A program made the translations under genes and the position numbers. Shown in pieces: positions 5,042 to 45,002 of a stretch of DNA of 64,000 bases (the stretch's first letter is position 1; each line of letters begins with the position of its first letter). The notes below the pieces were generated by a model. The model was not told where the DNA came from, ran no database searches, and worked only from the letters and a program-made list of their open reading frames with translations. This stretch comes from Candidatus Iainarchaeum sp. (GTDB taxonomy: Archaea; Micrarchaeota; Micrarchaeia; Burarchaeales; Fermentimicrarchaeaceae): the NCBI GenBank assembly GCA_028714235.1, contig JAQTMQ010000002.1:8154-72153 (forward strand). The letters are read 5' to 3'.

Positions 5042-5047
5042 GCGCAG

Positions 5048-5944: not shown

Positions 5945-5947
5945 ATC

Positions 5948-16044: not shown

Positions 16045-16403
16045 GATACCACCTCGGTATTCTGTGCCGTTTCTTTGTATGGGCGCCCGGCGAACTTCTC
16101 GCGTGAAGTGCCGGGTCGACAGATGCTCCCTGCCGACATAATACCAATATTAACAACGGCACACGTTTGCCCATACACAAACCCCACGTCATCCGACGGC
16201 GCACCCGGTAGGGCGCGCAGCCATCAATAGGGCTATTCCACAGGGTTTATTTTCTATGCCTTTTTAAATATTACTGAAACCTACTAACTCCAGTTAATAT
16301 TTGACAATCGGCGGAACGCCAATTGACGAACCTATTGTTCGTCTCGCCGCGGCACCCGGAGGTGCCGCTTTTGCCCGGCAAACCCTGCAGTAAGTGCTTT
16401 GCT

Positions 16404-16437
16404 CCTTCCAATGTTATATACCTTCCAATGTTATATA
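16404..16437 (+). promoter_or_regulatory. tandem 17-nt direct repeat (2 x CCTTCCAATGTTATATA) carrying two TATA-like boxes, positioned for the leaderless ATG at 16464
   Basis: Perfect duplication seen directly in the sequence. The second TTATATA (16431-16437) is centred ~27-30 nt upstream of ATG 16464. Confidence 0.5.
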
Positions 16438-16463
16438 TAGTGCGCTTCCCCAAACCGTTTGCG

Positions 16464-23023: not shown

Positions 23024-23029
23024 AGGGAA

Positions 23030-28478: not shown

Positions 28479-28493
28479 ACCACCCCAAAACCA

Positions 28494-29225: not shown

Positions 29226-29228
29226 GCC

Positions 29229-30032
29229 TCATGCCACTGAATCGAACATCCCGACCATCCTCGGCTTGAGGACGGCGCGCTCGGACGCCATTCTCTCGAT
29301 GTCTTCAGCCGCTTTTTCCGGCGACCCGCGCGCGAGCCGGAGCAAGGCGGCAACGTCCCCGGAGGATATTGCAAGCCTTGCGGCGTGCTCGGCGACGTCC
29401 GCCTTCGCGTCGCGCGCCTGCTTTTCGAGCGCCACGCTGACCGCGAGGGCCCTGTCGCTTTCCCACGCCTTGTCAACGCAATGCTTGGCGACTTCGCAGT
29501 CGGCGTTCCTGGCTGCGATGCGCGACGCGGATTCGTTCCAGCCCTTCGCGAGCGCCACGTCGATTGCGAGGCTTGCGGTTTCGGCCGGAGCGAAAGCCCC
29601 GATTGCCTCAAGCGCGTCCTCCGGCGCCTTTTCAACGTCCCCTTTCCCAACAAGCGAAAATTTTCCCTTCGCGTGCGCGGCGAATTCGCGCGAAAGGCGC
29701 GAACTGAGCTCAACCGCGCGCCCGAGCTCCGCCCAGCGCCCGTTTTCCGCGAGCGCGTCAATCGCGCGCGTTTTCGCGGCAGGGCGGTCCACGACCGCGG
29801 AGCCGGCCAAGCGCGCCCAGTCCTGCTTCTTGACCGCGTCGCCAATCCGCGCGAGCGCGCGCCCGTCAAGCGAGGCAGAAACGTCGCTCGCAAGGCGCGA
29901 GAAAACGCCGCCCGCGTTGCCTTCCTTCCCCGCTTTCGGGAGGGTTATTCCCAAGCCGATGGTGTCGCTGCCCAGCGCCGCCATGCCGGCATCCGGGGCG
30001 CCGGCCTCCCTCTTTTTCGCCGAGGTTCGCAT
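29229..30032 (-). CDS. alpha-helical repeat protein, paralog C
   Basis: The plausible protein runs from ATG at 30032 (MRTSAKKREAG...), Ala-rich and helical. The longer ORF extension up to 30518 is R/G/P junk. Confidence 0.45.
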   Translation of the reverse strand: MRTSAKKREAGAPDAGMAALGSDTIGLGITLPKAGKEGNAGGVFSRLASDVSASLDGRALARIGDAVKKQDWARLAGSAVVDRPAAKTRAIDALAENGRWAELGRAVELSSRLSREFAAHAKGKFSLVGKGDVEKAPEDALEAIGAFAPAETASLAIDVALAKGWNESASRIAARNADCEVAKHCVDKAWESDRALAVSVALEKQARDAKADVAEHAARLAISSGDVAALLRLARGSPEKAAEDIERMASERAVLKPRMVGMFDSVA

Positions 30033-30100
30033 GGCTACACCCGCGAAGGGGAGGAATAATAACTTAACTCCGGGCGCGCGTTCGCTCGACGGCCCGCCTT

Positions 30101-30755
30101 TCAGTCCATCCGCTTTCCTTTGAGCTGCGAGTTTCTCAGCATCAATCCGAACTCCGCGTCGTTCATCCAGTTCGTGCGCGCAATCAGCGCGCTCGCAACC
30201 TCTGGCGGAACGGACTCGTTGCCGGAAAGCATTGAGTTTACGCCCTCTTTTGCGGTGTCGTAATCGCTTTCCAGCGCGAGGCGGCGCAAGCCGTCGCGCG
30301 CCCCACGGCTTGAAAGGAATTCGACCGCCAGCTTCCATGCCCCGGGCGAATTCGTGTTCGCGCCGATGCATTTTATCCCTTCGGCCGCAGCCTTGGCGAC
30401 ATCCAGCTGCAGGGGGTGGGCTGCGGGTCGCCCGGCGATGCTTGAAAAAAGCTTCACCGCCTCTCCGGCTTCCGGGGCGCGCGGAACGCTTCTTGCCACG
30501 TGCCGGATTGCGTCGCACGCGAAGCGACCGCAGCAGTCGGCTTCAAGGCCGGGAAGCGGGCGCCCGCTCGGCCGCACTCTCCTCAAAAACGCGCGCTCCT
30601 TCCCGCTGAGGCAGGACGCCTGCCCTGGGTCGGCGAGGCGGCCCATGAGCGTGAACGCAAAATCGATTTCGCCGAGCAGCTCCGGAACGCTTTTCAGGGA
30701 GCGTGGCTTCGCTTGCCCGGCCCTGCCTTCAGGGCCAACCGTTTTCTCCTTCATC
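30101..30755 (-). CDS. alpha-helical repeat protein, paralog D
   Basis: Start chosen at ATG 30755 (MKEKTV...) so that it does not run through the divergent promoter. Confidence 0.4.
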
Positions 30756-30787
30756 AGCACCACGGGAAACCCTTGGGCGGCAATGGG

Positions 30788-30803
30788 ATATATAGATATA
30801 ATA
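30788..30803. promoter_or_regulatory. AT-rich bidirectional TATA region (ATATATAGATATAATA)
   Basis: Centred ~30 nt upstream of the plus ATG at 30825 and ~35-40 nt upstream of the minus ATG at 30755. Confidence 0.45.
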
Positions 30804-30824
30804 CGGTCGCCCAAAAGCATTGCC

Positions 30825-31661
30825 ATGGACCAGCTCGTCGTTTTCACGTTCGCATTCGTTTCAGTGCTCGAAATCGCGTTGCCGTTCGCGGCCGCCTTCT
30901 GGCTCGCAAAAAAGCTCGGGCCTTCGTGGAAGGCTTTCGCGGCGGGCGCGCTCTTCTTCGTCGTCATCCAACTGGTGCACGCGCCGGTTGCGGTGGCCGT
31001 GCAGTCGGGTTTCGGGGCGGGCGTGGCAAGCCAGCCGCTCATGCTTGCCGCCCTCGCGGCGGTCCTCGGCCTCCTTGCCGGGCTGTTCGAGGAAGTGGGC
31101 AGGTTCCTCGCGTTCAGGCACGTATTCGGGCGCGCCGGCATCCGGCTGGACGGCAGGAACGCGGCAATGTTCGGCGTGGGGTGGGGCGGAATCGAGAGCG
31201 CAATCGTCGGGGCTCTTCTCATATTCACGATGTTCATCTACGCTTCCCTGCAGCCGGCCACTCCCGCATACATCGCACAGGTCAACGCAAGCATGAACGG
31301 CACGCTCACGGGCGAGCAGGCCATGCTCCTGTCCGCGCAAACGCAGCAGCTTCTCTCGCTTTCGCCGCTTGACCTTCTCCCGAGCCTGGCCGAGAGGATA
31401 ATGGCAATGGTGCTCCACGTCGCCTGGACGATGCTCGTTTTCCTCGCGGCAATCCAGAACAGGAAAAAGCTGCTCGCCGTCGCGATAGCATGGCACGCGG
31501 CGGTCGACTTCTCGACCGTCCTAATCGCGCAGCTCGCCGGAGTCTACGCCGCGGAGGCGTCGCTTCTCGTTTTCGCCGTCATCGCCGCATACTACATCAA
31601 AAACAGCTGGCCCGAATTCATGCAGGCGGCCGAGAGCGCGCCGCAGCAAACCGGCGCCTAA
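30825..31661 (+). CDS. polytopic membrane protein, CPBP/YhfC-like putative intramembrane metalloprotease
   Basis: ~7 TM helices. EEVGRF (EExxR-like) and AWHAAVDF (HxxxD/N-like) motifs lie in membrane helices. Confidence 0.5.
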   Translation: MDQLVVFTFAFVSVLEIALPFAAAFWLAKKLGPSWKAFAAGALFFVVIQLVHAPVAVAVQSGFGAGVASQPLMLAALAAVLGLLAGLFEEVGRFLAFRHVFGRAGIRLDGRNAAMFGVGWGGIESAIVGALLIFTMFIYASLQPATPAYIAQVNASMNGTLTGEQAMLLSAQTQQLLSLSPLDLLPSLAERIMAMVLHVAWTMLVFLAAIQNRKKLLAVAIAWHAAVDFSTVLIAQLAGVYAAEASLLVFAVIAAYYIKNSWPEFMQAAESAPQQTGA

Positions 31662-31715
31662 GCCTCGCGCGCCCCGGCCGCAACCGCGCCCGCTCCCTTG
31701 CTCCCTTATTTGCCG

Positions 31716-33182
31716 CTAGACCCTGAAGCGGGAGAACGCCTTGCCGTCGATGACGTCGCGGAAGGCGCCCCTGGAGACATCCGGGTTGTGCGCGAACAGC
31801 CAGAAAAGCGTTTCAACGTTCCCGTTTGCTACCGCCACGTCCTTTACATGGCGCGCGACTTCCGGGTGTTTCGTGTGGCAGGCGACCTTGTTCACGCCAT
31901 CCCATCCGGCTTGGCCTCCCTCCCCCGCAAGCTCGTCTACGGCAAGGTTCGCGACATCGGGCCGGCACATCATCCCGAACTCCGCGACCATGTCCCAATC
32001 GCTTTTCGCCGCGGCGGCAAGCACGTCCTCCTTTTCCGCCCTCCCAATCACCGCATTCCCGTATCTCACCACTTCATCATGCTTAGTGGAATGCTGCATC
32101 CTCCCAACAAGGTCAAACCGGTGGTTCTCCGCCCCCCATTCCATGACGCGCTTCTCCAGCTCGGGTGAGTGCCTGCTCGCGAACGTAACCGCCACCCAAT
32201 CCTCGCCTTCGTCAAGCGCTTTCAGCACGGCCTTCTCCGCCAGTCCCCTATATAGCCTCGGCGCCTCAAAGCCGGCGCCGTCCGCAAACACGCCCCAACG
32301 CTTGTTCTTGAGCGCGTAATCGACCGCATCCGCCTGTGCTTTGAGCGAAGCGTGCCGCATGGCCGACCAGAAAACCTCCCGCTTCCCCGCATCCCTCGCA
32401 AGGTCAAAGCACAGCTCCTTCGGCTGGTTCCGCCACCCGTACAGGACGGTTTCCGTGACCACTTCCCACATTCCCGCCTTCGCCGCTGCGGCAAGCCCGT
32501 AGCGCGCCACCTCCTCGGGCCCGCTGAACACGAGCGCGGTCAACCCCTTGGCGTCGCGCTTGGACACGAGCGCGTCCACGTCCTCCCTGGTCGCGCCCTT
32601 CATCATTTCCTGCGCGTCGTCGGAGTTTCCGACAGTGGCCCACAGTCTTGCCTTAACCGCCTCCTCAAGCGCGGCATGCTTCGCCTCCCGCGACTTCGCC
32701 TTGAAGGCAATGACGCCAATAGTCTTCGCTTTCCCCTTTTCCCCCGCAAGCCTTGCCCCGAAAACCCCGACTTCCGGGATTTCGCTGTTAACCGCAATCC
32801 TGTTGAACGCCGGCCAGCTGCCGTTTTCAGCCGCGAGGACGAGGCCGAATTTCTGCACTTCCGCGAGTTTCGAGCGCGATGCGATGTACCCCAATGCCTT
32901 GAGCTGTTTTTTTCCGGCCGCGATTCCAAGCGCCTTCTCGCCTACGTAAGCGCTCATGCTCTCCGCCCCGATTTCCTGGAAGCTGTCCCACTTACCCGCC
33001 TTGGCGGCCCTCTCCAGCCGCCAGACCTGCAAACGCTCGACCGGCGTTCCCACCCTAAGGGCGACTCCAGGCCCCGGGCCGTCGCCCGCGAGCATTCCGG
33101 AGCGCAACAGCTCGCGCAGCGGCCTTTCAGCGGTACCAGCGGAAACCTTGTCCCTGTGTTTCATGCCACACGCCTCCATCAA
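31716..33182 (-). CDS. alpha-helical repeat protein, paralog E
   Basis: 488 aa, Ala/Glu/Lys-rich helical with recurring ...AAKAG.W..V... units. It overlaps paralog F stop/start by 4 nt. Confidence 0.5.
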   Translation of the reverse strand: MMEACGMKHRDKVSAGTAERPLRELLRSGMLAGDGPGPGVALRVGTPVERLQVWRLERAAKAGKWDSFQEIGAESMSAYVGEKALGIAAGKKQLKALGYIASRSKLAEVQKFGLVLAAENGSWPAFNRIAVNSEIPEVGVFGARLAGEKGKAKTIGVIAFKAKSREAKHAALEEAVKARLWATVGNSDDAQEMMKGATREDVDALVSKRDAKGLTALVFSGPEEVARYGLAAAAKAGMWEVVTETVLYGWRNQPKELCFDLARDAGKREVFWSAMRHASLKAQADAVDYALKNKRWGVFADGAGFEAPRLYRGLAEKAVLKALDEGEDWVAVTFASRHSPELEKRVMEWGAENHRFDLVGRMQHSTKHDEVVRYGNAVIGRAEKEDVLAAAAKSDWDMVAEFGMMCRPDVANLAVDELAGEGGQAGWDGVNKVACHTKHPEVARHVKDVAVANGNVETLFWLFAHNPDVSRGAFRDVIDGKAFSRFRV

Positions 33183-35320
33183 ACCGTTTCGCGCGCTTCT
33201 CGTTTCCGGGAAACGGTTCCAAGAATGCTTTCAAGCTCCGGGCCGTTCCCGTGCTCAAGCGCGAGAAGGATGCAGTACTTCCCAATCCTGTCCGAACCAT
33301 CCGCCTTGGCCGCATCCCGGACTTTTTCCCACCTGCCCGCTTCCGCGTCGGCCGAAAGCCGGGCGCAAACGGGTTTCCCGTCTTTTGGCACGGCGTAGCG
33401 CACCCAGTCCGAAACCGGGTGCGGCCGCCCTCTTCCCCTCTCTATATTCAGGCCGGCAAGCCAGGACTTGAGGCACGCGCGCGAAATCCCTTCAAATTCA
33501 CCCGCCGAAGGCGGTTGCCCGCTTTTCTCCAGCTCCCCCAGGATTCCGGCCGCGGCAGCGTAATCGCATGAAGCGGCGGCCCTTGCCAAGCCCTCAACCC
33601 CTGAAGCATGCGCTCCCGCGTTTTCGGGGGCGGGCGGCTTCCGCCCGGCCGTCTCGTCGCCACTTGTTTCGGCCCGCGCGGGAACCGGCGCCGCCGCGTT
33701 TTCGGCTTGAGTGCCGGGTTCCACCCGCTTCTTTCCCGAAACGATTGAAGCAATCCTTTTGAGCGCGCCGTACTCCCCGTTGTTGAGCGCGAGAAGCGCG
33801 GCCGTCTTCTCGGCGAAGCCCGACCTCGCGCCCCGCACCGCCTCCTCGATTCCCTCCGCGTCCCGCTTGTCGGAAAGCGCAAGCAGCCTGTCGCGCGCAG
33901 CCGTTTCGCCTGCCGGGCAGCCGGCAAGCCAGAGCGAAACCGGGTTTGAGCGGGCGGGAACCTCCCGGCCTGCTTTGCCCATCCACGCGGACGCCGCATC
34001 CTGCGCGCATTTCTCGCGCAGCGAGGAAAGCCTGTTTCCTGCCGCCCTGGAATCCGCGTCAAGCACTCCCGCGAGCGCGGAAACCGCGGCCCACTCCTCC
34101 CCGCCAAGCGCATCCGCAAGCGAGTCAAACGCCTGCTTCCTGAGCGCGCCTGCCTCCACCGGCCCGAGCGCGCGCGAAACGTTTGCGCCGGGCCCCGCGG
34201 GGTCGCCGCCTAGTTTTCCGTGCCCGACTCTCCTGTCGTGGTAGCGCCCGGCGCCGGCCCCATTCTTTGGGGACGCGGTAATGCTCGCGTCATTCAGCTC
34301 GATTGGCCAGGCGCCGGCAGCCGGCTTCTTCTCGGGCGGCTTGGTTTCAGGCGGCAGCCTTGCGAGCGCGGCTTTCGCGGGCCCGGAGACTTGCGGGTTT
34401 TTGGATTCCGCCAGCTTCGCAATCGTTTCCCTTGCCTCTTTCTCTTCAAGCAGAAGAAAAAGCCTTTCGCTCGCTTCAGGCGTTATCGCCCCGCTTTCAA
34501 CAAGGCCGCCCACGAAACCCGTTTTTCCTGAAATGTCAGTCGAGCGCAGGACTTCCACAAGGAACGTCGCGCTCTCGTCATTCCTCGTAATCACGGCTTC
34601 AGCAAGCTGGTGAAGGGTGTTCTCGACTTCCACGGCCGAAGCCCCTTTTATCTGCCCAGGCGCGGGCAAACCCGTTCCGGTTGCAGCCGCGCCTTCCGCG
34701 CCAGCGGTTGCAACGGCCGGCTTCGTTGCGGCACCGGCTTCGCCCAAGCTTCCCTTTTGCGCCGGAGCGGATACAACGGCGGTTGCGGGCTGTTGCACTT
34801 GCCGCGCGGGCTGCGCGGGCGCCGGGGCATGCACGGTTGTTGCAGGCGTTTCCCCCTGCGCGCCCGCTTGGGGGGCGGCTGCCTTGAGCGCTTCGGCCGC
34901 AAGCTCCTTGACTTTCGGGTTCCTCGCGTTGCTCGCCAGGAATCCCATCCTTTCAAGGTCGCCGTTCCGCCTGAACAGCGCGATGGCCTGTGCGCCGAAG
35001 CTTTCCGGCGTCTTCGGCTTGAGCGCCACGGCCAGAAGGAGCGGGGAGACGCGTTTCGCCTCCTCGCCTGCCGGAATCTTCGCGACTTTTTCGGTGGCGC
35101 CGGGCCATCTGTCGCTGGAAATCAGCTGGATGAGGTATTCGGTTTCATCGATTCTGGGGTGGCTTTTCCGGCCGTAGCCCGGAGTCGTCATTTTTTGCCT
35201 TCGGTAAGCCTCGCTGAACTCGTCCTTCGGCCCTTTGGGGTTGTCCCGCCTCACCTTTTCATGCCTGGCCTTTTCCGCACCCTTCCTGCCACGCACCCTT
35301 TCCGCGTTCTTCCAGCCCAT
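33179..35320 (-). CDS. alpha-helical repeat protein with central Ala/Pro-rich linker, paralog F
   Basis: Start placed at ATG 35320 (MGWKNAERV...), which puts TTATATTATT (35342-35351, minus strand) at about -27. A low-complexity linker AAPQAGAQGETPATTVHAPAPAQPARQVQQPATAVVSAPAQ separates the halves. Confidence 0.5.
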   Translation of the reverse strand: MGWKNAERVRGRKGAEKARHEKVRRDNPKGPKDEFSEAYRRQKMTTPGYGRKSHPRIDETEYLIQLISSDRWPGATEKVAKIPAGEEAKRVSPLLLAVALKPKTPESFGAQAIALFRRNGDLERMGFLASNARNPKVKELAAEALKAAAPQAGAQGETPATTVHAPAPAQPARQVQQPATAVVSAPAQKGSLGEAGAATKPAVATAGAEGAAATGTGLPAPGQIKGASAVEVENTLHQLAEAVITRNDESATFLVEVLRSTDISGKTGFVGGLVESGAITPEASERLFLLLEEKEARETIAKLAESKNPQVSGPAKAALARLPPETKPPEKKPAAGAWPIELNDASITASPKNGAGAGRYHDRRVGHGKLGGDPAGPGANVSRALGPVEAGALRKQAFDSLADALGGEEWAAVSALAGVLDADSRAAGNRLSSLREKCAQDAASAWMGKAGREVPARSNPVSLWLAGCPAGETAARDRLLALSDKRDAEGIEEAVRGARSGFAEKTAALLALNNGEYGALKRIASIVSGKKRVEPGTQAENAAAPVPARAETSGDETAGRKPPAPENAGAHASGVEGLARAAASCDYAAAAGILGELEKSGQPPSAGEFEGISRACLKSWLAGLNIERGRGRPHPVSDWVRYAVPKDGKPVCARLSADAEAGRWEKVRDAAKADGSDRIGKYCILLALEHGNGPELESILGTVSRKREARETV

Positions 35321-35404
35321 CGGGGTTTCCCTGCGAAACACAATAATATAACATGCTGCCCCCGGACTGGCGTTTTCGGGCGCGTTCTCGCCCCCGAAGC
35401 CGGC

Positions 35405-35414
35405 AAATTATATT
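35405..35414 (+). promoter_or_regulatory. TATA-like box (AAATTATATT) for the metallopeptidase pair; a GGTGGG Shine-Dalgarno-like element lies 5 nt before the ATG
   Basis: Seen directly in the sequence: TATA at 35405-35414, GGTGGG at 35451-35456, ATG at 35462. Confidence 0.4.
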
Positions 35415-35461
35415 CTTATCCCTCTTTACTTAGTGCCGTTCCAGTCCAAGGGTGGGTTTTC

Positions 35462-37453
35462 ATGGCGGTAACCGCGGTAAAGCAGCAGAAAGCCGGTTCC
35501 GGCGCGCGCAAGGACGTCCTGGCCGACGGCGAAACCGTGAGGTTCGCGGGCAAGGATTACCGCATCCTGAGGATAGCGAACCCGCTTTTCGGCGATTTCG
35601 CGGAAGGCGGGCTGCTTTCGGGCGGGGAGAGGCGCGCCTACCTCGAAGTAATCCGCGCGCTCCTCCCGGTGGTCGGGCTCACGAACGAAATCTGCGCGAG
35701 CCAGACCGCGGACGGGCATTACGGCGCGATTAAATGGCTTGGAACCATCGCCGAAAACGTTGGCGAGGGCGCCGTCAACGCGGGATTCCTGCGCAAGCTG
35801 CGCGTGTTCCACGCCTTCACGGAAAGGGCGCTCTCGCTTTACGACGACAATTCCGGCATGAAGGCCATTCCGCCCTTCACGCGGAAGGAGCTCAAGGATG
35901 CGGTGCAGTCTGTCCGGGACGCGGGCAGCCGCGCGCAACTCCTTTCGCAATTCGACCGGCATGCCGAAACCATTTTTTCGGTGGAGCCGGTTCCTCCGGG
36001 CATGAACCTTTACCGCTTCCGCACCCCGGCCGACAAGCGCGCTTTCCTGGAAAGCTTGGGCCCGGAATACGCGTCGCTTGAGGAGGAGCTGAAGTGCGCC
36101 GCGAGGGAGCTCATGGCCTCGCCGGAATCCGGCACCGAAAAGTATGCGGCGGCGGGCAGGAAGATGGGCAGGATGCAGGCCGAGGCGCTCCGCGGCGCGC
36201 TCAAGGCCTCAGGAGCCCGCGGCTACGACGCGCCGGACACAATCGTCTTCATGTCCTGCGGGGCGGACGGCAGGCTTGCCGTGAAGGCGGAGAAATACGA
36301 GGACGTTTTCGCAAGCGAGCTACGCGGAATCGCGGCGTGCTTCATGCGGGCGAGCGTTCTCTCCGAAAAGGTTTCGCCCAAGCTCTCCTCGCAGCTCGCC
36401 CTGCTTTCCAGGGCGGCGGTTTCCGGCGGCTACGCGGACGCGGACGAGGCGAGCTACAGGATAACGTCCGGGGACTCGAAGCTTGACGTTGGCTTCGAGT
36501 GGAAGGAAACGTACATTGACGGGCTTCTCGGGCGGAAGGGCGAAATCTCGTTCCGCCTTACCACCGCGGCCCTGCAGGAAAGCGGGGTGAACGCGGGGAT
36601 TCGCGCGGACCCCCGGTTCCGCGCGCTCAACATCGTGACCGGAGACAACCTTCTCCTCGGCGGGTTTGGCTGGAAAATCCCGTTCAGCGGGCAGAAGCTG
36701 CCCAACGGCGACAGCCCGGTTTACAAGGTCGTCATCATGAGGAACGCGGCGGAGCGCATACAAGGGGAGCGGCTCAAGCCCCTGCGTGAAATAATCGCCA
36801 TGTCGCCGGAAAACGAGGAGAAAACGCTTTCCGCCTTAATTCCCGACGTCACCATGCACGAGGCGAGCCACATGCTCGGCGGAAGCGACGCCCCCCACCT
36901 TTCGTCCTTCGCTAACGCGGTCGAGGAATGCAGCGCGGAATCGAACGCGCTCGTCCTCGCGGAAAAGATGGCGCCCGGGCACGTGCGCGGAATGGTTTTC
37001 AAGCGCGCGGCGTACGGCCCCATCTGGGCGGCGATAGGGCTTTCGGGCGCGCACCAGAAGGCGTACGTCTACATAGCCGGCAGGATGATGGACGGGGGAG
37101 CGGCAAGGACGGACCCGGAAACCGGCAGGCTTTGCGTTGACGCGGAGCGCGCCGTGCCGATAATCCGGCAGGTCGCGGCGGAATGCCTGCTTCTTGAAAA
37201 GCCTTGGCAGGATGCGGATGCCGCGGAAGCGCTTCTCGCGCCAGAGCTCGGGAAGCTGGTTCCCGCGGGAAGGAAGCCGGGCAAAAGCGAGCTTGAGGCC
37301 GCGGCCCTCGCGCGCGCAGAAAAAATGTTCGGGGACGAGAACATCGGGCGGATTGCCGGGAACCTCGCGCCCGCATTGCGGAAGCTCGCAGGCAAGCCGG
37401 TAGCGCTCGGGTGGTACGGCTTCTCGGACGACCCGCTCAACAAGAGGGTTTAG
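35462..37453 (+). CDS. putative gluzincin-type zinc metallopeptidase (HEASH-X18-EE), tandem paralog 1
   Basis: 663 aa with motif MHEASHMLGGSDAPHLSSFANAVEECSAESN (HEXXH followed 18 residues later by EE). It is ~45% identical to paralog 2 along its length. Confidence 0.65.
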   Translation: MAVTAVKQQKAGSGARKDVLADGETVRFAGKDYRILRIANPLFGDFAEGGLLSGGERRAYLEVIRALLPVVGLTNEICASQTADGHYGAIKWLGTIAENVGEGAVNAGFLRKLRVFHAFTERALSLYDDNSGMKAIPPFTRKELKDAVQSVRDAGSRAQLLSQFDRHAETIFSVEPVPPGMNLYRFRTPADKRAFLESLGPEYASLEEELKCAARELMASPESGTEKYAAAGRKMGRMQAEALRGALKASGARGYDAPDTIVFMSCGADGRLAVKAEKYEDVFASELRGIAACFMRASVLSEKVSPKLSSQLALLSRAAVSGGYADADEASYRITSGDSKLDVGFEWKETYIDGLLGRKGEISFRLTTAALQESGVNAGIRADPRFRALNIVTGDNLLLGGFGWKIPFSGQKLPNGDSPVYKVVIMRNAAERIQGERLKPLREIIAMSPENEEKTLSALIPDVTMHEASHMLGGSDAPHLSSFANAVEECSAESNALVLAEKMAPGHVRGMVFKRAAYGPIWAAIGLSGAHQKAYVYIAGRMMDGGAARTDPETGRLCVDAERAVPIIRQVAAECLLLEKPWQDADAAEALLAPELGKLVPAGRKPGKSELEAAALARAEKMFGDENIGRIAGNLAPALRKLAGKPVALGWYGFSDDPLNKRV

Positions 37454-37459
37454 GGGGCG

Positions 37460-39451
37460 ATGGGGGTGTGCGCTTTGGCTGGCGTTCGGTTCAAGGAAAA
37501 CGCGGCTGCCTCCGCTTTCGCGGACGGCGAAAAATTCATGTTCAGCGGGAAGCAGTACGAACTCCTGCGGATTCCGAACCCCCTCCTCAAATGGCTTGAG
37601 GGCGACGCGCTCACGCCCGGGCAAAAGGAAGCGTACCGCAACGTGCTTGAGGCGCTGCTTCCGGTGCGCGAGCTGACGGACCGGATAGGCTCGAGGCAGC
37701 TCTCGGGGAACGCGGGCGAGGCGATTGGCTGGCTCGGCGAAGCCCTGGAAGCGATTCCGAAAACGTCCGCGAACGCGGAGCTCGTCAGGAACCTCCGAAT
37801 CTACGTCATGTTCGCCTCGCACGGCATATCGCTCTCCAATCCGAGGGACGACGTGAAATACGTTCCATCGTTCACGCGCAAGTCCCTCAGGAAGGCGATT
37901 GAATCCATCGGCGACGGTCCGGTCCGCTCCGGGCTTTTGAAGCGTTTCGACGCGAACGCGAGGGAAATCTTCTCGGCAGAGCCCGTTTTCCCGGGCGCGA
38001 ACGTTTACCGCTTCCGGACGCAGAAGGACAAGAAGAGGTTTTTGCGGGGCCTCGGGCCCGAATACCGGCGCCTGCAGGAGGAGCTGGACTCCAAGGTCAG
38101 GGAATCCATCGCCTTCCCGGAGGCCGGCACCAAGGAGATTGCGAGGCTGAGCTTGGAGATGATGGGAATCCAGGCCAAGGCGCTGAAAAAGCAGCTGGCG
38201 GGCGCGAGCTGCGAACGCCGGGACGACAAGAACACGATAGTCTTCATGTCTTACGACAGGAATGGACGGATGACCGCGGAAACGAAGACGTACGAAGAGG
38301 AGTTCGGGCCCGAATTGAAGGAGATTTCCCGCTGCTTCCGGGAAGCGGGCGAAAAGGCGAAACCCGTTTCCGGGAAGCTTTCGAGGCAGCTTGCCCTGCT
38401 CTCCGAAGCGGTGCTCAGCGGCGACTACTCGCAAGCGGAGGAGACGTGGCTCCGCATGAGCCCTGCCGATTCGCTCGTGGACGTCTACTTCGGCTACCCG
38501 GAAACCTACTTCACCTTCAACAACCGCAAGGGCGAATACGAGTTCAGGCTGGGAATCGCGAACCCGGCCCCCGACCCCCTGCTGGAGGCGGTCAAGGGCG
38601 ACGAGCGCTTCGGTTCGCTCGCAATCGTGAAGCTTGACGACTTCGCCACGGGCGGCCGCGCCCACCGCATGGGCAGCATCGGGAAAAAGCTTCCCAGCGG
38701 CCCAAGCCCGTTCTACAAGGACATCATAATCGCCAACGTAATCCACGAAACGACCATGAGGAGGCATGCCCTCATGCCGGAGTTCGTGCGCCTGCCCGGA
38801 GGCGACCTTACCGGGGAGGACATGAAACAGGTCTTCGCCGCCACCGTCCCGTCCGTGGAGTCGCACGAGATAGCCCACATCTTCGGAGGCGCGGGTGCCG
38901 AGCACCTGCTGGGCCGCTTCAACGTGATTGAGGAATGCAGCGCGGAAAGCAACGGCGCCGCACTTGCCGAAACCATCGGGCGCGAGCACAGGAAGGGCCT
39001 CATGCTCTGCATGGCCGCGCGCGGCCCGTTCCGGATGCTCGTCGGCCTTTCCGGCGCGCACGAAAGGACGAACATCTACATCACGGGCAGGATGCTGGAG
39101 GAAGGCGCGATCGCCATGGACGCCGGCTCGGGCAAGCTCGTCGTGGACGTGGACAAGTCGGTGCCCGTCCTGAAAAAGATTGGCGAGGAATGCCTGCTCC
39201 TTGAAAACCCGGAAGCGTCTCCGGAAAATGCCAAGGCGCTTCTGGCCCCGGAGCTGAAGGAGCTTGAAGCGAAAGGCGGGCCTCCAGACCTGAAAGCCGC
39301 GGCCTACATGCGCGCGGAAGCCATGTTCGGGGACGAGAACATCGGGCGGATTGCCGAAATCCTCGAGCCCGCCGCGGACAAGATTCGCGGCAAGCCCCTC
39401 CTGTTCGACGTCGCCGACTACCTTGACGACCCGTTCAACAAGAGGGTTTAG
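37460..39451 (+). CDS. putative gluzincin-type zinc metallopeptidase (HEIAH-X18-EE), tandem paralog 2
   Basis: Also exactly 663 aa, with motif SHEIAHIFGGAGAEHLLGRFNVIEECSAESN and the same C-terminal DDPFNKRV tail as paralog 1 (DDPLNKRV). Confidence 0.65.
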   Translation: MGVCALAGVRFKENAAASAFADGEKFMFSGKQYELLRIPNPLLKWLEGDALTPGQKEAYRNVLEALLPVRELTDRIGSRQLSGNAGEAIGWLGEALEAIPKTSANAELVRNLRIYVMFASHGISLSNPRDDVKYVPSFTRKSLRKAIESIGDGPVRSGLLKRFDANAREIFSAEPVFPGANVYRFRTQKDKKRFLRGLGPEYRRLQEELDSKVRESIAFPEAGTKEIARLSLEMMGIQAKALKKQLAGASCERRDDKNTIVFMSYDRNGRMTAETKTYEEEFGPELKEISRCFREAGEKAKPVSGKLSRQLALLSEAVLSGDYSQAEETWLRMSPADSLVDVYFGYPETYFTFNNRKGEYEFRLGIANPAPDPLLEAVKGDERFGSLAIVKLDDFATGGRAHRMGSIGKKLPSGPSPFYKDIIIANVIHETTMRRHALMPEFVRLPGGDLTGEDMKQVFAATVPSVESHEIAHIFGGAGAEHLLGRFNVIEECSAESNGAALAETIGREHRKGLMLCMAARGPFRMLVGLSGAHERTNIYITGRMLEEGAIAMDAGSGKLVVDVDKSVPVLKKIGEECLLLENPEASPENAKALLAPELKELEAKGGPPDLKAAAYMRAEAMFGDENIGRIAEILEPAADKIRGKPLLFDVADYLDDPFNKRV

Positions 39452-39468: not shown

Positions 39469-40425
39469 TCAAAGCGATTTCAGGAATTCCTTGTCCGGGC
39501 CGCCTTCAGCCGCGCGTGCGCGCTTCGAAAGCTCGTCCGCAACGCCTTTCGGGAGCTCGATTCCCGCCTGCTTCGCGTAAGCCGCGCCCAGCTTCGCGGT
39601 CTCGTAGTTGCAGTTTCTTCCCGCGTAGCCGAGCCATTCCTCGGCTCCGGCCGCCTCGAGCTCCTTGACCGCGGAAACCCATGCCTTGTGGTCTTTAGGC
39701 TTGAACTCGTTCGCCACGTACAGCAGGCATGAAACGGAAGTGTCGCGCACCCGCGAAAAGCTTTCGTAGAAAACCATCCCTATGCGGTTCGGGTTTATTT
39801 CCCGCCTTATCCGGGCAAACGCCTCAACCGCCTTTTCGGCCCCGCTGCCCGCGCGCGTCGCAAGGAAGGCGCCGTTCGCAAGCCCGTAGGAAACCTCGTG
39901 GGACGCCTCGCCAAAAAGCCCGGCCAGCAAGTCCTGCCCCCTGAAGAGAAAACGCGGATATTCCTTCCCGTTTATGAGGCACTCCATCACTTCCGCGTCG
40001 TGGCCCGAGAATCTTTCCCTCAGGAATTCGGCCTCCTTTTTCGTGAACTTCGTATTCTTCATCGCGGCCCGCGACTTCTCCAAAGCCGAAGAAAACTTCT
40101 TCCGTTCCTCATTTCCCGTCTTCCTCTCTTCCATCGCGCGCTCAAGGTTCCAGCCGTCCGAAAATGCGTCGTACCTCTTGTGCGCCTTGTTCATCAGGTT
40201 CGCGAGGAACAGGGCGTTGCCGATTGCCTGCCTGCCGCTTTTCTGGAAGAAGTCGATTTCGTGCTGCCGCTCCCGGGTCACGCCGGCCAAGTAGAGCATG
40301 TTGAATTCCGTCGTGGGGAAACGCTCGGCCTTTTCCTTCCTCTCCGCGAAAAGCGCTCCCGGCTCCCTGTCAAACCGCTTCTTTTCCGGTCCGCTCCTGA
40401 ACTCATACGACGGCATCCAATCCAC
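39469..40425 (-). CDS. hypothetical protein
   Basis: 318-aa charged helical protein. No family recognised. Confidence 0.45.
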   Translation of the reverse strand: MDWMPSYEFRSGPEKKRFDREPGALFAERKEKAERFPTTEFNMLYLAGVTRERQHEIDFFQKSGRQAIGNALFLANLMNKAHKRYDAFSDGWNLERAMEERKTGNEERKKFSSALEKSRAAMKNTKFTKKEAEFLRERFSGHDAEVMECLINGKEYPRFLFRGQDLLAGLFGEASHEVSYGLANGAFLATRAGSGAEKAVEAFARIRREINPNRIGMVFYESFSRVRDTSVSCLLYVANEFKPKDHKAWVSAVKELEAAGAEEWLGYAGRNCNYETAKLGAAYAKQAGIELPKGVADELSKRARAAEGGPDKEFLKSL

Positions 40426-40478: not shown

Positions 40479-40865
40479 TCAGCCTATCCTGAACGTCGGG
40501 CCCCGGGGCAGTTCCTCCCCGTAAATGCGGCGGATTTCGTTCTCCCGCTTCTCACGGAGTTCTCTCGCCCTTTTTGCCGCGCCGGGCGCCAAATCGCGCG
40601 CGAACCCGCTTATTTCCGGGTCTGTAACATCCTGGAGCTTTTTAATCTCGGCGACCTGCCCGTTCTCCGCGAGCAGGTGGACCGCGTTCTTCCGGACGTA
40701 GCCGTCCTGCCCGGCATCCTTCGCCACCTTAACGAGCCAGTCCCACGTGCTATTGGCCGCAAAAATCCGGTTGTTGTCAAGCGCATCCCAAACGTCCACT
40801 TTTTTCCCGGTCACGCTTTTCTCCGCCAACGAAACCACCAAGTACCCTTCATGCTTTCCCTTCAC
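40479..40865 (-). CDS. small HEAT/PBS-lyase-like repeat protein
   Basis: VRKNAVHLLAENG matches the PBS-HEAT signature. Confidence 0.45.
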   Translation of the reverse strand: MKGKHEGYLVVSLAEKSVTGKKVDVWDALDNNRIFAANSTWDWLVKVAKDAGQDGYVRKNAVHLLAENGQVAEIKKLQDVTDPEISGFARDLAPGAAKRARELREKRENEIRRIYGEELPRGPTFRIG

Positions 40866-41126: not shown

Positions 41127-41849
41127 GTGTTTTGGATGTACCCTGTTTCTCCGCAGGCATACGATAGGGCCATAACCGTCTTCAGCCCTGACGGGAGGCT
41201 TTTCCAGGTGGAATACGCGAAGGAGGCGGTGAAGAGGGGCGCGACCGCAATCGGCGTGGTCTGCGGCGAGGGAGTGGTGCTCGTCGCCCACAAGTCCATG
41301 GCCTCCACGCTCCTCGAGCCCGAGTACATGAGGAAGATTTTCATGATTGACGGCCACATCGCCGCCACGGCGAGCGGCCTCGTCGGCGACGCGCGCCGGC
41401 TCGTCGACCTGTCGAGGCTCGAGTCGCAGAAGCACAAGATGACTTACGGCGAGGACGTGACGGTGGAAGCGGTCGCGAAAAACATCAGCGACCTCGCGCA
41501 GGCGTACACGCAGTACGGCGGGGCGAGGCCGTTCGGCGTCTCTCTTTTGCTCGGGGGGATTGACTCGGAGCCAAAGCTTTTCGAGGTTGACCCGTCGGGC
41601 GCGCTTTCGGGCTACAAGGCGGCCGCCATCGGGGCGGGCAAGAAGGAGGCCGAGGACTTCCTTGAGAAGGAGTACAAGGAGGGCGCGGGCATTGACGACA
41701 CCGTCGCGCTCGCCTTGCGCGCGCTGAAGAGGACGGTTGACGCGAAGCTCGGCCCGGAAAACGTTGACGTCGCCATCATCTCCAGGAAGGGCATGAAGTT
41801 CGAGTTCCTGGGCGCGGCCGAGATTTCCAAGTACTTGTCCAAGGCTTGA
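41127..41849 (+). CDS. psmA: proteasome alpha subunit
   Basis: YDRAITVFSPDGRLFQVEYAKEAVKRGATAIGV... Confidence 0.9.
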   Translation: MFWMYPVSPQAYDRAITVFSPDGRLFQVEYAKEAVKRGATAIGVVCGEGVVLVAHKSMASTLLEPEYMRKIFMIDGHIAATASGLVGDARRLVDLSRLESQKHKMTYGEDVTVEAVAKNISDLAQAYTQYGGARPFGVSLLLGGIDSEPKLFEVDPSGALSGYKAAAIGAGKKEAEDFLEKEYKEGAGIDDTVALALRALKRTVDAKLGPENVDVAIISRKGMKFEFLGAAEISKYLSKA

Positions 41850-41853
41850 GCGG

Positions 41854-42546
41854 ATGGTTTCCCTAGACGACGCGGTAATCGCCAGGATTTCGGTCAACGG
41901 CAAGCATTTCGAGCTTTTCGTGGACCCTGACGCGGCTTTCAAGTACAAGACGGGCGCGAAGACGGACCTCTCGAACATCCTCGTGGTCGAGGAAGTCTTC
42001 GAGGACGCGAGGAAGGGCGAGCGGCACACCGAGGCCGAAATAAAGAAGGCCTTCCAGACGACGGACATCAACAAGATTGCCGAGATAATGCTCAAGAGGG
42101 GCGAGGTGCCCGTCACGACGGAGCAGAAGAAGCGGCTCCTCGAGGAGAAGCAGAAGAAGATTGTCGCGATTATAGCGAGGGAGGCGATTGACCCGAGGAC
42201 TGGCGCGCCGCACCCGCCGCAGAGGATTGAGAGGGCGATGGAGGAGGCGCGCGTCAGGATTGACGAGTTCAAGGACGCGGAGGCGCAGATTGAGGAGGTG
42301 CTCAAGGAGCTTCGCCCCATCCTCCCCTTGAAGTTTGAGAAGGTCAAGGTCGCGGCGCGGATTCCCGCGGAATACGCGAACAGGATTTACGGGGCCGTGA
42401 AGCAGTACGGAATCAGGCAGGAGGAATGGCAGAAGGACGGCTCGCTCATAGTGGTCGTGGAGATGCCCGCGGGAATGCAGGGCGAGTTTTACGGGCAGCT
42501 CAACAAGCTGACCGCGGGAAGCGTTGAAACCAAGGTCGTGAAGTAG
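41854..42546 (+). CDS. SBDS/Sdo1-family ribosome maturation protein
   Basis: FELFVDPDAAFKYKTG...NILVVEEVFEDARKGERHTEAEIKKAF and its position after psmA, as in the archaeal exosome superoperon. Confidence 0.85.
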   Translation: MVSLDDAVIARISVNGKHFELFVDPDAAFKYKTGAKTDLSNILVVEEVFEDARKGERHTEAEIKKAFQTTDINKIAEIMLKRGEVPVTTEQKKRLLEEKQKKIVAIIAREAIDPRTGAPHPPQRIERAMEEARVRIDEFKDAEAQIEEVLKELRPILPLKFEKVKVAARIPAEYANRIYGAVKQYGIRQEEWQKDGSLIVVVEMPAGMQGEFYGQLNKLTAGSVETKVVK

Positions 42547-42672
42547 CTTTTGTGTTTGCGAAGTTTTGTTTGCGAAGGTGAGTGCTTGTTTGGAGCGAAG
42601 AGGTTTGGGAAGGAAAAGTTCGAGAGGGCGGGGTTCCGCGGCGGGAGGCGGGGAGGCCAGCAGTTCGCCCCC

Positions 42673-43359
42673 ATGCCGCAGGCGCCTGCCGCGGGCGCGG
42701 AGCAGGAGCGCCACGGCCCGGAAAGCCACGGCGAGCCGGCGCGGAAGTCGCGCCTCGTGGTTCCCGGGGAGCTTCTGGGCGCGGCGGGGAGGCCGATTCC
42801 CCACACGTTCACCGAGAAAGGCAGCGCCTATTCCAGCGTTGTCGGGCTTTTTGACGACGCTTCCGGGAAGCTCATCCCGCTCGAGGGAGTCTACACGCCG
42901 GCCCTTGACGACGTGGTCGTCGGCGTGGTGGTCGCGGTGAGGTTTGCCGGCTTCACGCTTGACCTGAAGTCGCCTTACGAGGGCTTCATTTCCGGGAAGG
43001 ACACGCGCGACGTGTTCAAGCTCGGCGAAGTGCTCGTTTCGCGCGTGAAGGAGGTGGACGAGGTCAGGAACGTGGACCTCACCGAGGCGTCGAAGCTCGA
43101 GGGCGGCGAGATAATCGAGATTCCCTCCGTGAAGGTGCCGCGCGTCATCGGCAAGAACTCCTCCATGATCCGCATGCTGCAGGACGCGACTAAAAGCGAG
43201 ATTGTCGTGGGCAAGAACGGGAGGATTTGGGTGAAGGGCGGGAATTCCGCGCTCGCGATTGAGGCGATTCTGAAGATTGAGAGGGAAGCCCACACGCAGG
43301 GGCTGACCGACCGGATCAGCGCGCTTTTGGGGTCCGGCGGCCAGTCCAGGGGCGTTTAG
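42673..43359 (+). CDS. rrp4: exosome RNA-binding subunit Rrp4 (S1 + KH domains)
   Basis: It has VVPGELLG, S1-like GDVVVGVV and KH-like IPSVKVPRVIGKNSSMIRML. The start is uncertain: the long ORF opens at 42550, and ATG 42673 was chosen. Confidence 0.8.
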   Translation: MPQAPAAGAEQERHGPESHGEPARKSRLVVPGELLGAAGRPIPHTFTEKGSAYSSVVGLFDDASGKLIPLEGVYTPALDDVVVGVVVAVRFAGFTLDLKSPYEGFISGKDTRDVFKLGEVLVSRVKEVDEVRNVDLTEASKLEGGEIIEIPSVKVPRVIGKNSSMIRMLQDATKSEIVVGKNGRIWVKGGNSALAIEAILKIEREAHTQGLTDRISALLGSGGQSRGV

Positions 43360-43367
43360 CGCTGAAG

Positions 43368-44216
43368 GTGTTTTTGATGGACAAGCCGAAACTCATTGTT
43401 GACGGGAAAAGGATGGACGGCCGCGCGATGGACGAGCTGCGCCCGATCCTGATAAAGGCGGGCGTGCTCAACAAGGCGGACGGCTCCGCCTACATCGAGT
43501 GGGGCAAGAACAAGGTTCTTGCCGCGGTGTACGGGCCGAGGGAGTGCATTCCCAAGCACGACGAGAACCCCTACAAGGCGCTCGTCAGGTGCACTTACAG
43601 GATGTCGCCCTTCTGCTCGCTTGAGGAGCACGGGCGGCGCGGCCCCTCGCGCAGGGGAACCGAAATCTCGAAGCTCATCTCCAACGTTTTCGACACGGTC
43701 GTGATGGCGGAGCATTTCCCGAAGACCGCGATAGACATTTTCGTAGAGGTGCTGCAGGCGGACGGCGGGACGCGGGTCGCGGGCCTCACGGCCGCGGCGG
43801 TCGCACTCGCGGACGCGGGCATCCCGATGAAGGACGTCGTGTGCGGAGTCGCGGCCGGAAAGATTGACGGCGAGATTGCAGTGGACTTCGGCAAGTACGA
43901 GGACAATTTCGGCGAGTCCGACATCCCGGTCGCGGTTTCGCCGCGGACGGGCGAGCTCCTGCTTTTGCAGATGGACGGGATGCTCACGAAGGATGAGGTC
44001 ATGAGGTCCGTTGACATGGCGATTTCCGCGAGCATGAAGGTGCACGAGCTCCAGGTCGCCGCGCTGAAGGAGCGCTACGCGGAGAAGGAGAAAAGCGGCG
44101 CGCTCGGCGGGGAGGGCGACAACGGGGGCGGGAGCCTTCCTTCGGACGCGGGGGGCGGGAGGCAGGGAATGGCGCTGCAGCCGGTTCCCGGCGATGCGGG
44201 GGAGAGCGCCCGATAA
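43368..44216 (+). CDS. rrp41: exosome RNase PH subunit Rrp41
   Basis: RNase PH fold (DGRAMDELRPI...DGSAYIEWGKNKVLAAVYGPRE). Confidence 0.9.
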   Translation: MFLMDKPKLIVDGKRMDGRAMDELRPILIKAGVLNKADGSAYIEWGKNKVLAAVYGPRECIPKHDENPYKALVRCTYRMSPFCSLEEHGRRGPSRRGTEISKLISNVFDTVVMAEHFPKTAIDIFVEVLQADGGTRVAGLTAAAVALADAGIPMKDVVCGVAAGKIDGEIAVDFGKYEDNFGESDIPVAVSPRTGELLLLQMDGMLTKDEVMRSVDMAISASMKVHELQVAALKERYAEKEKSGALGGEGDNGGGSLPSDAGGGRQGMALQPVPGDAGESAR

Positions 44217-44219
44217 CTG

Positions 44220-45002
44220 GTGGTTTTGATGGTCGAAATTCTTGACGAGGTTAGGAAGGAGTTCGTGAAGGACCTGATTGCTAACGGCAAGAGGCCGAGC
44301 GGCAGGGCTTTCGACGAGTTCAGGCCGGCGACGGTAGAGCAGAACGTGATTCCGAACGCGGAGGGAAGCGCGAGGGTGCACCTCGGGAAGACACAGGTGC
44401 TCGCGGGCGTGAAGCTCGGCATCGGGGAGCCGTTCGCGGACAAGCCGGACGAGGGCATGCTTTCCACGAACGCCGAGCTTCTGCAGCTCGCGCACCCGAC
44501 TTTCGAGTCCGGGCCCCCGGACGCGCGCTCCGTGGAGCTTGCGCGCGTGGTTGACCGGGGAATCAGGAGCAGCAGCGCGGTCGACCTGAAGGCGCTCTTC
44601 ATAGAGGAGGGGAAGGCGTGGAATTTCTTCCTGGACCTCTACATCCTCGACCACGACGGCAACCTGATTGACGCGGCAGCGCTTGCGGCGATGTCCGCAA
44701 TCCTCTGCGCGAAGCAGCCCCGGCTCGAGGACGGGAAGGTTGTCCGCGAGGGCTCGCTCGGGCTCGTCAAGTCCGGCGCGACCTGCGTGGCGACGACCTT
44801 CGGGAAAATCGGCTCGACGATAGTCGCGGACCCGGACCTTGACGAGGAGAAGGCGATGGACGCGCGGCTCACGATTACGACTACGCCGGACCGCGTGTGC
44901 TCCATCCAGAAGGGGTGCGCCGGCGGGTTCACCCGCGACGAAGTCGCGTCGCTCATAGACCTCGCCTTCGAGAAGGGGAAGGGGCTGAGGGCGCTTTTAT
45001 AA
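44220..45002 (+). CDS. rrp42: exosome subunit Rrp42
   Basis: Inactive RNase PH fold (GKRPSGRAFDEFRP...EGSARVHLGKTQVLAGV). Confidence 0.85.
   Translation: MVLMVEILDEVRKEFVKDLIANGKRPSGRAFDEFRPATVEQNVIPNAEGSARVHLGKTQVLAGVKLGIGEPFADKPDEGMLSTNAELLQLAHPTFESGPPDARSVELARVVDRGIRSSSAVDLKALFIEEGKAWNFFLDLYILDHDGNLIDAAALAAMSAILCAKQPRLEDGKVVREGSLGLVKSGATCVATTFGKIGSTIVADPDLDEEKAMDARLTITTTPDRVCSIQKGCAGGFTRDEVASLIDLAFEKGKGLRALL

Follow-up and report, generated by a model that had tools for sequence, protein, structure and literature searches.

Two adjacent reading frames in a 64,000-nucleotide stretch of DNA (the window) from a small DPANN archaeon, both annotated as hypothetical proteins, encode a HExxH motif followed by a pair of glutamates, and the question raised by this locus is to which enzyme family, if any, the two products (p1 and p2) belong. 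In the original prediction they were putative zinc metallopeptidases with the gluzincin spacing of M1 and thermolysin-like enzymes and an EECxAE block reminiscent of M49, but unlike those families in that the catalytic motif lies near the C-terminus, behind an unrecognised N-terminal region of about 480 residues. The analysis presented here bore out the metallopeptidase-type likeness to M49, but neither the leaning towards M1 and thermolysin nor the unrecognised region. Both proteins are distant homologues of the M49 peptidases (dipeptidyl-peptidase III, DPP III), and their family extends a known enzyme family and constitutes no new zincin class, catalytic class or fold.

Two tandem genes

The coordinates of p1, p2 and their features are given in Table 1. 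The genes are co-oriented, equal in length as predicted, and separated by only 6 nt. BLASTP aligned the proteins over their full length with 42% identity (279/668, E=1e-169), against the figure of about 45% proposed earlier. The conserved tails DDPLNKRV and DDPFNKRV were found as described, one per paralog, and no hydrophobic segment or signal-like N-terminus was seen in either sequence. Both GenBank entries originate from a 'Candidatus ainarchaeum sp.' MAG, p1 being MDD5317249.1 (PHF51_00790) and p2 being PHF51_00795, for which the start is placed 5 codons downstream, giving 658 aa. p1 is identical to the cluster representative P0002.

Reading of the sequence by eye suggests a putative promoter and leader upstream of p1, with a TATA-like A/T-rich box, AAATTATATT, about 45-55 nt 5' of the p1 ATG and a Shine-Dalgarno-like element, GGTGGG, 8-13 nt 5' of the same ATG. 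Ahead of the p2 ATG, in the region of the 6-nt spacer, there is another candidate G-rich element, GGGGG.

Table 1. Positions of the genes and of their conserved regions in the window.
Feature	Position	Strand	Basis
p1 (paralog 1), predicted M49/DPP III-like zinc metallopeptidase	35462..37453	+	Open reading frame and translation; 663 codons plus stop
p2 (paralog 2), predicted M49/DPP III-like zinc metallopeptidase	37460..39451	+	Open reading frame and translation; 663 codons plus stop
Candidate promoter and leader sequence ahead of the two genes	35406..35461	+	By eye from sequence
p1 R1 core, ETY (E349, Y351), counterpart of BtDPP III TESY	36506..36514	+	R1 as defined in PMC5667867
p1 R2 core, KLPNG, corresponding to the NLPN strand of M49	36695..36709	+	5ZUM alignment, KLPNGD opposite NLPNDE
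p1 R3, HEASH (H466, E467, H470), two predicted Zn ligands and general-base Glu	36857..36871	+	Alignment to CaDPP III HEISH and Corallococcus HELMH; family-invariant
p1 R4, EECSAE (488-493; E488, E489), second Glu the predicted third Zn ligand	36923..36940	+	Alignment to CaDPP III EECKAD
p1 R5 core, GAH (H531), corresponding to the catalytic His of DPP III	37046..37054	+	Family-invariant
p2 R1 core, ETY (E348, Y350)	38501..38509	+	R1 as defined in PMC5667867
p2 R2 core, KLPSG	38687..38701	+	Alignment to M49 R2
p2 R3, HEIAH (469-473; H469, E470, H473)	38864..38878	+	Alignment to HEISH; family-invariant
p2 R4, EECSAE (491-496; E491, E492)	38930..38947	+	Alignment to EECKAD; family conservation
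p2 R5 core, GAH (H534)	39053..39061	+	Family-invariant

Homology to family M49

Scans against Pfam (PF03571) and NCBIfam gave no match for p1 or p2 at E<=10, both proteins stayed below the PF03571 gathering threshold, and none of the 15 family members was matched by PF03571 at E<=1 in the Pfam scan. A word-indexed homologue search returned the query alone and missed even its paralog, and with the family alignment as query it added one protein, a myxobacterial M49. PF03571 thus misses the family; nevertheless the homology to M49 is strong at the level of profiles. A profile of the two paralogs matched CaDPP III (6EOM) at E=1.8e-6, with HEIAH opposite HEISH and EECSAE opposite EECKAD, and the 15-sequence family profile matched 6EOM at 5.3e-13 and 5ZUM at 5.8e-12. 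When the family alignment that includes p1 (A2) was compared by hhalign with 21 short M49 proteins, presumably bacterial and 17 of them matching PF03571 at E<=0.001, the probability was 99.7% (E=5.7e-27, 435 columns) and the match covered columns 45-598 of the query profile. The HMM search that had been proposed as a check was accordingly negative with Pfam and NCBIfam and strongly positive when profile was set against M49 profile.

Conserved regions

Motif 1 of M49 is HEXXGH, for which the short bacterial enzymes have HEXXH, motif 2 is EEXR(K)AE(D), and the 'NLPN' strand binds the substrate backbone. For BtDPP III the regions R1 (..E-S-Y..K..), R2 (G-x-N-L-P-N...K...N) and R5 (E-A-H...) have been defined (PMC5667867); zinc in CaDPP III is bound by Glu412, the second Glu of EECKAD (PMC5805324), and His568 is a catalytic residue of human DPP III (PMC8587566).

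All five M49 conserved regions have counterparts in p1 and p2, the catalytic His included, and both paralogs retain every catalytic residue. In R1 the pattern is ETY...K...E, in R2 G-x-K-L-P-[NS]...K...N and in R5 G-A-H. As noted earlier, the HExxH and EECSAE motifs lie in the C-terminal part of the proteins; in both paralogs the gap between HExxH and the EE pair is exactly 17 residues long, and 18 residues separate the last His from the second Glu, which is the predicted metal ligand by homology to M49. These motifs are not due to chance, since a HExxH is expected from composition only about 0.01 times per protein, and since H469, E470, H473, E492, A495 and H534 (p2 numbering) are invariant in all 15 family members; E491 is kept in at least 90% of them.

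Relative to the short bacterial M49 enzymes, the first Asn of NLPN is replaced by Lys and the Lys/Arg of EEC(K/R)A by Ser, a position that clade 1 fills with Ser or Gln and clade 2 mostly with Asn, and as a result the register or specificity of exopeptidase cleavage may differ. A further deviation from the M49 pattern is Gly-Ala-His for Glu-Ala-His in R5.

Predicted structure and comparison with known enzymes

With a 40-sequence alignment AlphaFold2 gave a confident model (pLDDT 92.3, pTM 0.91), and with a 2-sequence alignment the pLDDT was 48. The best 17 Foldseek matches of the former, at E values from 1e-17 to 6e-12, were DPP III structures without exception. The model and the sequence-based homology are not entirely independent, because bona fide M49 sequences were included in the alignment. 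The check by structure prediction thus returned the fold of DPP III, in which the active site lies in the cleft between two lobes, and the N-terminal 480 or so residues are part of the normal two-lobe M49 body.

The nearest known enzymes are short bacterial M49 proteins with the pentapeptide HEXXH, namely the DPP III of Caldithrix abyssi (6EOM; PMC5805324) and of Corallococcus sp. EGB (5ZUM; PMC9820243), to which p1 and p2 are about 16-17% identical. In contrast to these bacterial proteins, p1 and p2 have archaeal hosts and fall below PF03571 detection, and they are about 100 aa longer, mostly by a helical insertion at about 187-260 that is without counterpart in the profile alignment. The spacer between the zinc motifs is 17 aa in p1 and p2 and 27 in CaDPP III. 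Identity to canonical DPP III (M49.001), as in human (3FVY, 3T6B, 5E2Q), yeast (3CSK) and Bacteroides thetaiotaomicron (5NA6-8), is 12-15%; these enzymes have the hexapeptide HExxGH in place of HExxH, and their inter-motif loops are longer, with 21 aa in Bt and about 52 aa in human, where the loop carries the ETGE Keap1-binding loop (PMC5667867).

Distribution, duplication and genome context

The family is rare, with about 20 clusters in a set of 1.84 billion representative proteins, and its named members are all Micrarchaeota, "Ca. ainarchaeum" or Ca. Burarchaeum. A few of the contigs bearing it look bacterial. A search with clade 1 as query recovered no more than 3 loci from GTDB representatives, all in Micrarchaeota, and 0 loci from JGI metagenome contigs.

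A conserved operon partner was rejected, because the neighbours shared by the window and one related locus (L006) are absent from L001, L004, L007 and L008; the shared neighbours look like residual synteny of related genomes. Downstream of the pair lies a convergent gene (39469-40425), to which nothing corresponds beside the relatives P0005 or P0003. The proteasome-exosome operon nearby was likewise rejected as a functional partner, as two opposite-strand genes lie in between and other members occur in unrelated contexts.

A second, independent tandem pair is found in Ca. Burarchaeum sp. (701 and 718 aa, 46% identical), and the duplication of p1 and p2 is old, given that p1 is closer to the single-copy P0003 (46%) than to p2 (42%). 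It is conceivable, at rather long odds, that the family is a PF03571-invisible, mainly DPANN subfamily with the M49 fold, whose sporadic bacterial members hint at inter-domain transfer, in which altered anchoring residues and a helical insertion of about 50-70 aa could give a different specificity or chemistry, and in which the recurrence of tandem pairs could point to a two-enzyme or heteromeric unit. The 6-nt gap, by which p1 and p2 are probably co-translated, the second tandem pair and the age of the duplication would all suit an obligate hetero-oligomer, or a pair in which one copy is regulatory or non-catalytic, a proposal that concerns the duplication and not the family assignment. It is unlikely, as both copies keep every catalytic residue and as the relatives in L001/L008, L006, L007 and L012 are single-copy, by which a partner is not required. 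To our knowledge the characterised DPP III enzymes are monomers.

Alternative chemistry and proposed mechanism

A DPP III-like fold could also serve a non-peptidase reaction, of the type of the Fe2+/pterin-dependent oxidase PolE (DUF6421; 9J2E) or of the DPP III relatives that are fungal aflatoxin oxidases, and this is improbable for p1 and p2. PolE, reported only from bacteria and mainly from actinobacteria, is about 370 aa long, has a spacing of 21-23 and lacks the DPP III catalytic His (PMC12614342), whereas p1 and p2 keep this His and all M49 regions. No sequence-level match between PolE and the family was found, and membership in PolE was rejected because the HE/DxxH-X(21-23)-E spacing, the missing His and the size are not those of p1 and p2. 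That the pair forms a new family of gluzincins, akin to M1 or thermolysin-like enzymes as HEXXH-X18-E had suggested, is scarcely credible and was rejected on both counts, since p1 and p2 have neither a GXMEN motif upstream of HEXXH-X18-E, the absence of GAMEN having been correctly observed, nor the M1 domain arrangement, nor the two-domain thermolysin fold of M4.

The preferred reading is that p1 and p2 are probably soluble, cytosolic, two-lobe Zn metallopeptidases and highly divergent members of M49, with a likely role as Zn-dependent oligopeptide exopeptidases of the cytosol. The predicted Zn2+ ligands of p2 are His469 and His473 of the HEIAH helix and Glu492, the second Glu of EECSAE, in the next helix; water would be activated by Glu470, and the tetrahedral intermediate would be stabilised by His534 of R5; the equivalents in p1 would be H466, H470 and E489 for zinc, E467 for water and H531 for the intermediate. 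If p1 and p2 behave like the DPP III enzymes whose structures with peptides have been solved, an oligopeptide would add a further beta-strand alongside the 'KLP' strand (R2) in the opposite lobe, with the N-terminus of the peptide anchored near Glu348/Tyr350 (R1) in p2, whereupon the lobes would close and the N-terminal dipeptide would be released, which presumes dipeptidyl-aminopeptidase specificity. The two genes, presumably born of an old tandem duplication, are probably co-transcribed in view of the 6-nt spacer, and their products most likely differ in substrate preference.

Implications

For the annotation of proteases, the locus is an example of a family invisible to Pfam and NCBIfam that can be recovered by comparing profiles with profiles and structures with structures. 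The M49/DPP III lineage now takes in archaeal genomes; among the papers that could be searched, none discussing archaeal M49 enzymes was found. A function is predicted for a handful of hypothetical proteins from DPANN archaea, which are believed to live on peptides and amino acids scavenged from elsewhere. In such a host, with reduced biosynthetic capacity, p1 and p2 may take part in the end-stage breakdown of oligopeptides that are imported or derived from the proteasome.

Sequence features of the p1/p2 gene pair

The tandem genes p1 and p2 are separated by 6 nt only and encode two equally long proteins of 663 aa, labelled PHF51_00790 and PHF51_00795 in GenBank, both hypothetical proteins of the MAG 'Candidatus ainarchaeum sp.'. 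Their full-length alignment (E=1e-169) bears out the relatedness in the original prediction and lowers its figure of approximately 45% identity to 42%. The remaining observations are confirmed with small numerical corrections: in both proteins HExxH is followed by EECSAE, with 17 residues up to the Glu-Glu pair and 18 separating its second Glu from the last His of HExxH, the C-terminal tail in both is DDP(L/F)NKRV, and the GxMEN motif was searched for and found in neither. All catalytic residues are retained in both, and no hydrophobic stretch long enough to cross a membrane or act as a signal peptide was found in either.

Coordinates of genes, motifs and conserved regions (nucleotides of the window or locus; residues where indicated)
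Feature	Location	Strand	Description
p1 ORF	35462-37453	+	663 aa
p2 ORF	37460-39451	+	663 aa; co-oriented with p1
p1 motifs	residues 466-470; 488-493		HEASH; EECSAE
p2 motifs	residues 469-473; 491-496		HEIAH; EECSAE
R1	p2 E348, Y350, K357		ETY...K..E
R2	p2 408-426		G-K-K-L-P-S/N ... K ... N
R3			HEIAH (p2)
R4			EECSAE
R5	p2 H534		G-A-H
Archaeal SRP RNA	1755-2024	-	Rfam RF01857; 99.5 bits, barely above the gathering score of 96.5
Pfam-less genes	10611-12749; 16323-17660		712 aa; 445 aa
Other large genes	12997-16044; 18587-21397; 21830-24172; 58785-61109	-; +; -; -
Large Pfam-less gene block	27783-35341	-	directly upstream of p1/p2, divergent
488-aa protein	31716-33182		L006 counterpart 31% identical
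Genes with further L006 counterparts	27783-28478; 30101-31237		56%; 29%
L006 counterparts of upstream block	L006 3771-8098 and 848-1618
Two Pfam-less genes	39469-40425; 40479-40865	opposite	between p2 and proteasome row
Proteasome-exosome row	41127-45002	+	proteasome alpha subunit, SBDS, Rrp4-like KH protein, Rrp41, Rrp42
Ca. Burarchaeum sp. tandem pair	L004 8001-10106 and 10180-12336		701 and 718 aa; 46% identical; GCA_030646255.1
L010 member, ~700-aa clade	5001-7073		RcpC pilus gene on contig; looks bacterial
L011 member, ~700-aa clade	5001-7037		ENA contig binned 'Polyangiaceae'; 3D-domain and IgGFc-binding genes nearby

Assignment to peptidase family M49

Pfam and NCBIfam scans of p1 and p2 detected nothing, whereas HMM searches with profiles of their own led to M49, the family of dipeptidyl-peptidase III (DPP III). 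With a single query sequence, the only match among PDB sequences was marginal, to the DPP III of Corallococcus sp. EGB (5ZUM, E=0.12). With a two-paralog profile Caldithrix abyssi DPP III (CaDPP III, 6EOM) was matched at E=1.8e-6, HEISH being paired with HEIAH and EECKAD with EECSAE. When 1.84 billion representative proteins were searched exhaustively with this profile (HMMER), only 41 came up at E<=1e-3, in three groups: a close clade of ~660-aa proteins (P0001-P0007), a ~700-aa clade with HE[YF]GHT...VEE[ST]NA[QE] (P0008-P0014, P0017, P0018 and others) and short proteins of 500-590 aa, 17 of the 21 aligned matching PF03571 (Peptidase_M49) in Pfam at E<=0.001. A 15-sequence family profile of members of the first two clades matched 6EOM (5.3e-13) and 5ZUM (5.8e-12) among PDB sequences, and profile-profile comparison with the 21 short M49 proteins gave a probability of 99.7% (E=5.7e-27, 435 aligned columns), the match spanning query columns 45-598 or p2 residues ~31-583.

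The predicted structure gave the same assignment. AlphaFold2 with the two paralogs only produced no usable model (pLDDT 48), and with a 40-sequence alignment the model was confident (pLDDT 92.3, pTM 0.91). Its best 17 Foldseek matches in the PDB are all DPP III structures (E 1e-17 to 6e-12), from Caldithrix, Corallococcus, human, Bacteroides, yeast and a fungal 'new DPP III family member', followed by PolE (DUF6421) at 2.8e-5 and then noise. Because model and top matches are DPP III, the N-terminal ~480 aa, formerly called unrecognised, are part of the ordinary two-lobe M49 body; the near-C-terminal position of the catalytic motif, earlier regarded as a departure from M49, is normal for it. 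The metal ligands of CaDPP III, a protein of ~560 residues, are His379, His383 and Glu412 (PMC5805324).

Homology of p1 and p2 to M49 is virtually certain, and they belong to it by fold, motifs and profile homology, the curated Pfam threshold being the sole M49 test that they fail. Their family is a new branch, divergent and unannotated, of one already known and does not make up a class of its own.

Conserved regions and differences from classical M49

Counterparts of all five conserved regions defining M49 (R1-R5), as listed for B. thetaiotaomicron DPP III (PMC5667867), were found in the p1/p2 family. Invariant in 15/15 members (p2 numbering) are G408, L411, P412, N426, H469, E470, H473, G476, E492, A495, G529, H534, G549, E582 and F623. 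Judged from sequence, H534 is the equivalent of human DPP III His568, which stabilises the oxyanion (PMC8587566).

Where classical NLPN has its first Asn the p1/p2 family has Lys; this position varies among short bacterial M49 proteins too, and in human DPP III it contacts substrate largely via the main chain (PMC8587566). The Arg/Lys of classical EEC(R/K)AE is replaced by Ser, Gln or Asn, and a helical insertion (residues ~187-260) is without match in the profile alignment to short M49 proteins. The inter-motif spacer, 17 aa in p1 and p2, is longer in B. thetaiotaomicron DPP III (21) and CaDPP III (27), and in human DPP III it is ~52 aa. Among characterised enzymes, those of Caldithrix (6EOM) and Corallococcus (5ZUM), which are short and carry the pentapeptide motif, are the nearest relatives. 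No paper linking M49 or DPP III with DPANN, Micrarchaeota or archaea generally was found in the searchable literature, a search which did not extend to MEROPS.

Distribution, duplication and gene neighbourhood

All named family members are DPANN ('Ca. ainarchaeum sp.', Ca. Micrarchaeota, Ca. Burarchaeum sp. and Ca. Burarchaeum australiense). In a scan of one genome per GTDB species the close clade turned up in no more than three Micrarchaeota MAGs, and it was found in none of the scanned JGI metagenome contigs. The ~700-aa clade is mixed: Burarchaeum loci have clearly archaeal neighbours, e.g. MCM, eIF-1A, eIF-2beta, RIO1 and fibrillarin, and the bacterial-looking contigs L010 and L011 suggest, with bin names taken as given, gene transfer between archaea and bacteria. 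Neighbour joining places both clades together, apart from the short M49 proteins.

Single-copy relatives occur at loci L001/L002/L003/L008, L006, L007 and L012. The p1/p2 duplication is old, since p1 shares slightly more identity with the single-copy P0003 (46%) than with p2 (42%). The Ca. Burarchaeum sp. pair, inserted between MCM and class-I tRNA synthetase genes at a site whose syntenic counterpart in Ca. Burarchaeum australiense (L012) has one copy, was duplicated independently, and tandem duplication has therefore occurred at least twice in the family.

The window is archaeal with ~63% G+C, and ARAGORN found no tRNA genes in the 64 kb. No neighbour gene conserved across the p1/p2 family was found. 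The proteasome-exosome row, a classic archaeal arrangement, starts 1.7 kb downstream of the pair. In the upstream block, a repeated 'A-G-K-W-D/E-x-V'-like motif suggests that the 488-aa protein is an alpha-helical repeat protein; it aligns full-length with the gene adjoining P0003 in L006 (E=2e-50). A PDB sequence search with the upstream block gave no match, and the genes common to the window and L006 look like residual synteny of an uncharacterised block in two related DPANN genomes. The other large genes include those for a 1015-aa S-layer-like protein (PF05124), a 936-aa double-AAA Cdc48-like ATPase, a DUF2070 membrane protein and a GH57 glycoside hydrolase beside a glycogen/starch-synthase-like GT4/GT5 glycosyltransferase, a pair possibly serving glycogen metabolism in this DPANN genome.

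Proposed function

p1 and p2 share homology, fold and conserved residues with DPP III, and in the best-supported reading we infer that they are cytosolic Zn-dependent oligopeptide exopeptidases of DPP III-like action. His/His/Glu would ligate the metal, the general base would be the Glu of HExxH, and the transition state would be stabilised by the His of R5; the substrate would line up in beta-strand form along the R2 strand, on the opposite lobe, and the active site would be completed when the hinge closes. Zn-peptidase activity is predicted with good confidence, and strict dipeptidyl-aminopeptidase specificity is slightly favoured.

That p1 and p2 form a heteromer instead of acting as independent enzymes is an unlikely conjecture, as single-copy relatives exist and a partner is thus not required. 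A non-peptidase reaction has its precedent in PolE, an oxidase that uses Fe/pterin, carries the motif HE/DxxH-X21-23-E and resembles DPP III in structure while lacking its catalytic His (PMC12614342); this His is however invariant in the p1/p2 family, the motif spacing is unlike that of PolE and no sequence-level tie was found between the family profile and PolE, which leaves such a reaction quite improbable. A new M1- or thermolysin-like gluzincin, towards which the original prediction leaned, is contradicted by fold and profiles, which point to M49, and retains hardly any probability.

As DPP III-like exopeptidases, p1 and p2 may serve an archaeon of reduced genome in the last steps of peptide breakdown or in salvaging amino acids. 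Their assignment to M49 is useful for annotation and, while of little surprise to a specialist, has a mild bearing on protease evolution and DPANN physiology.
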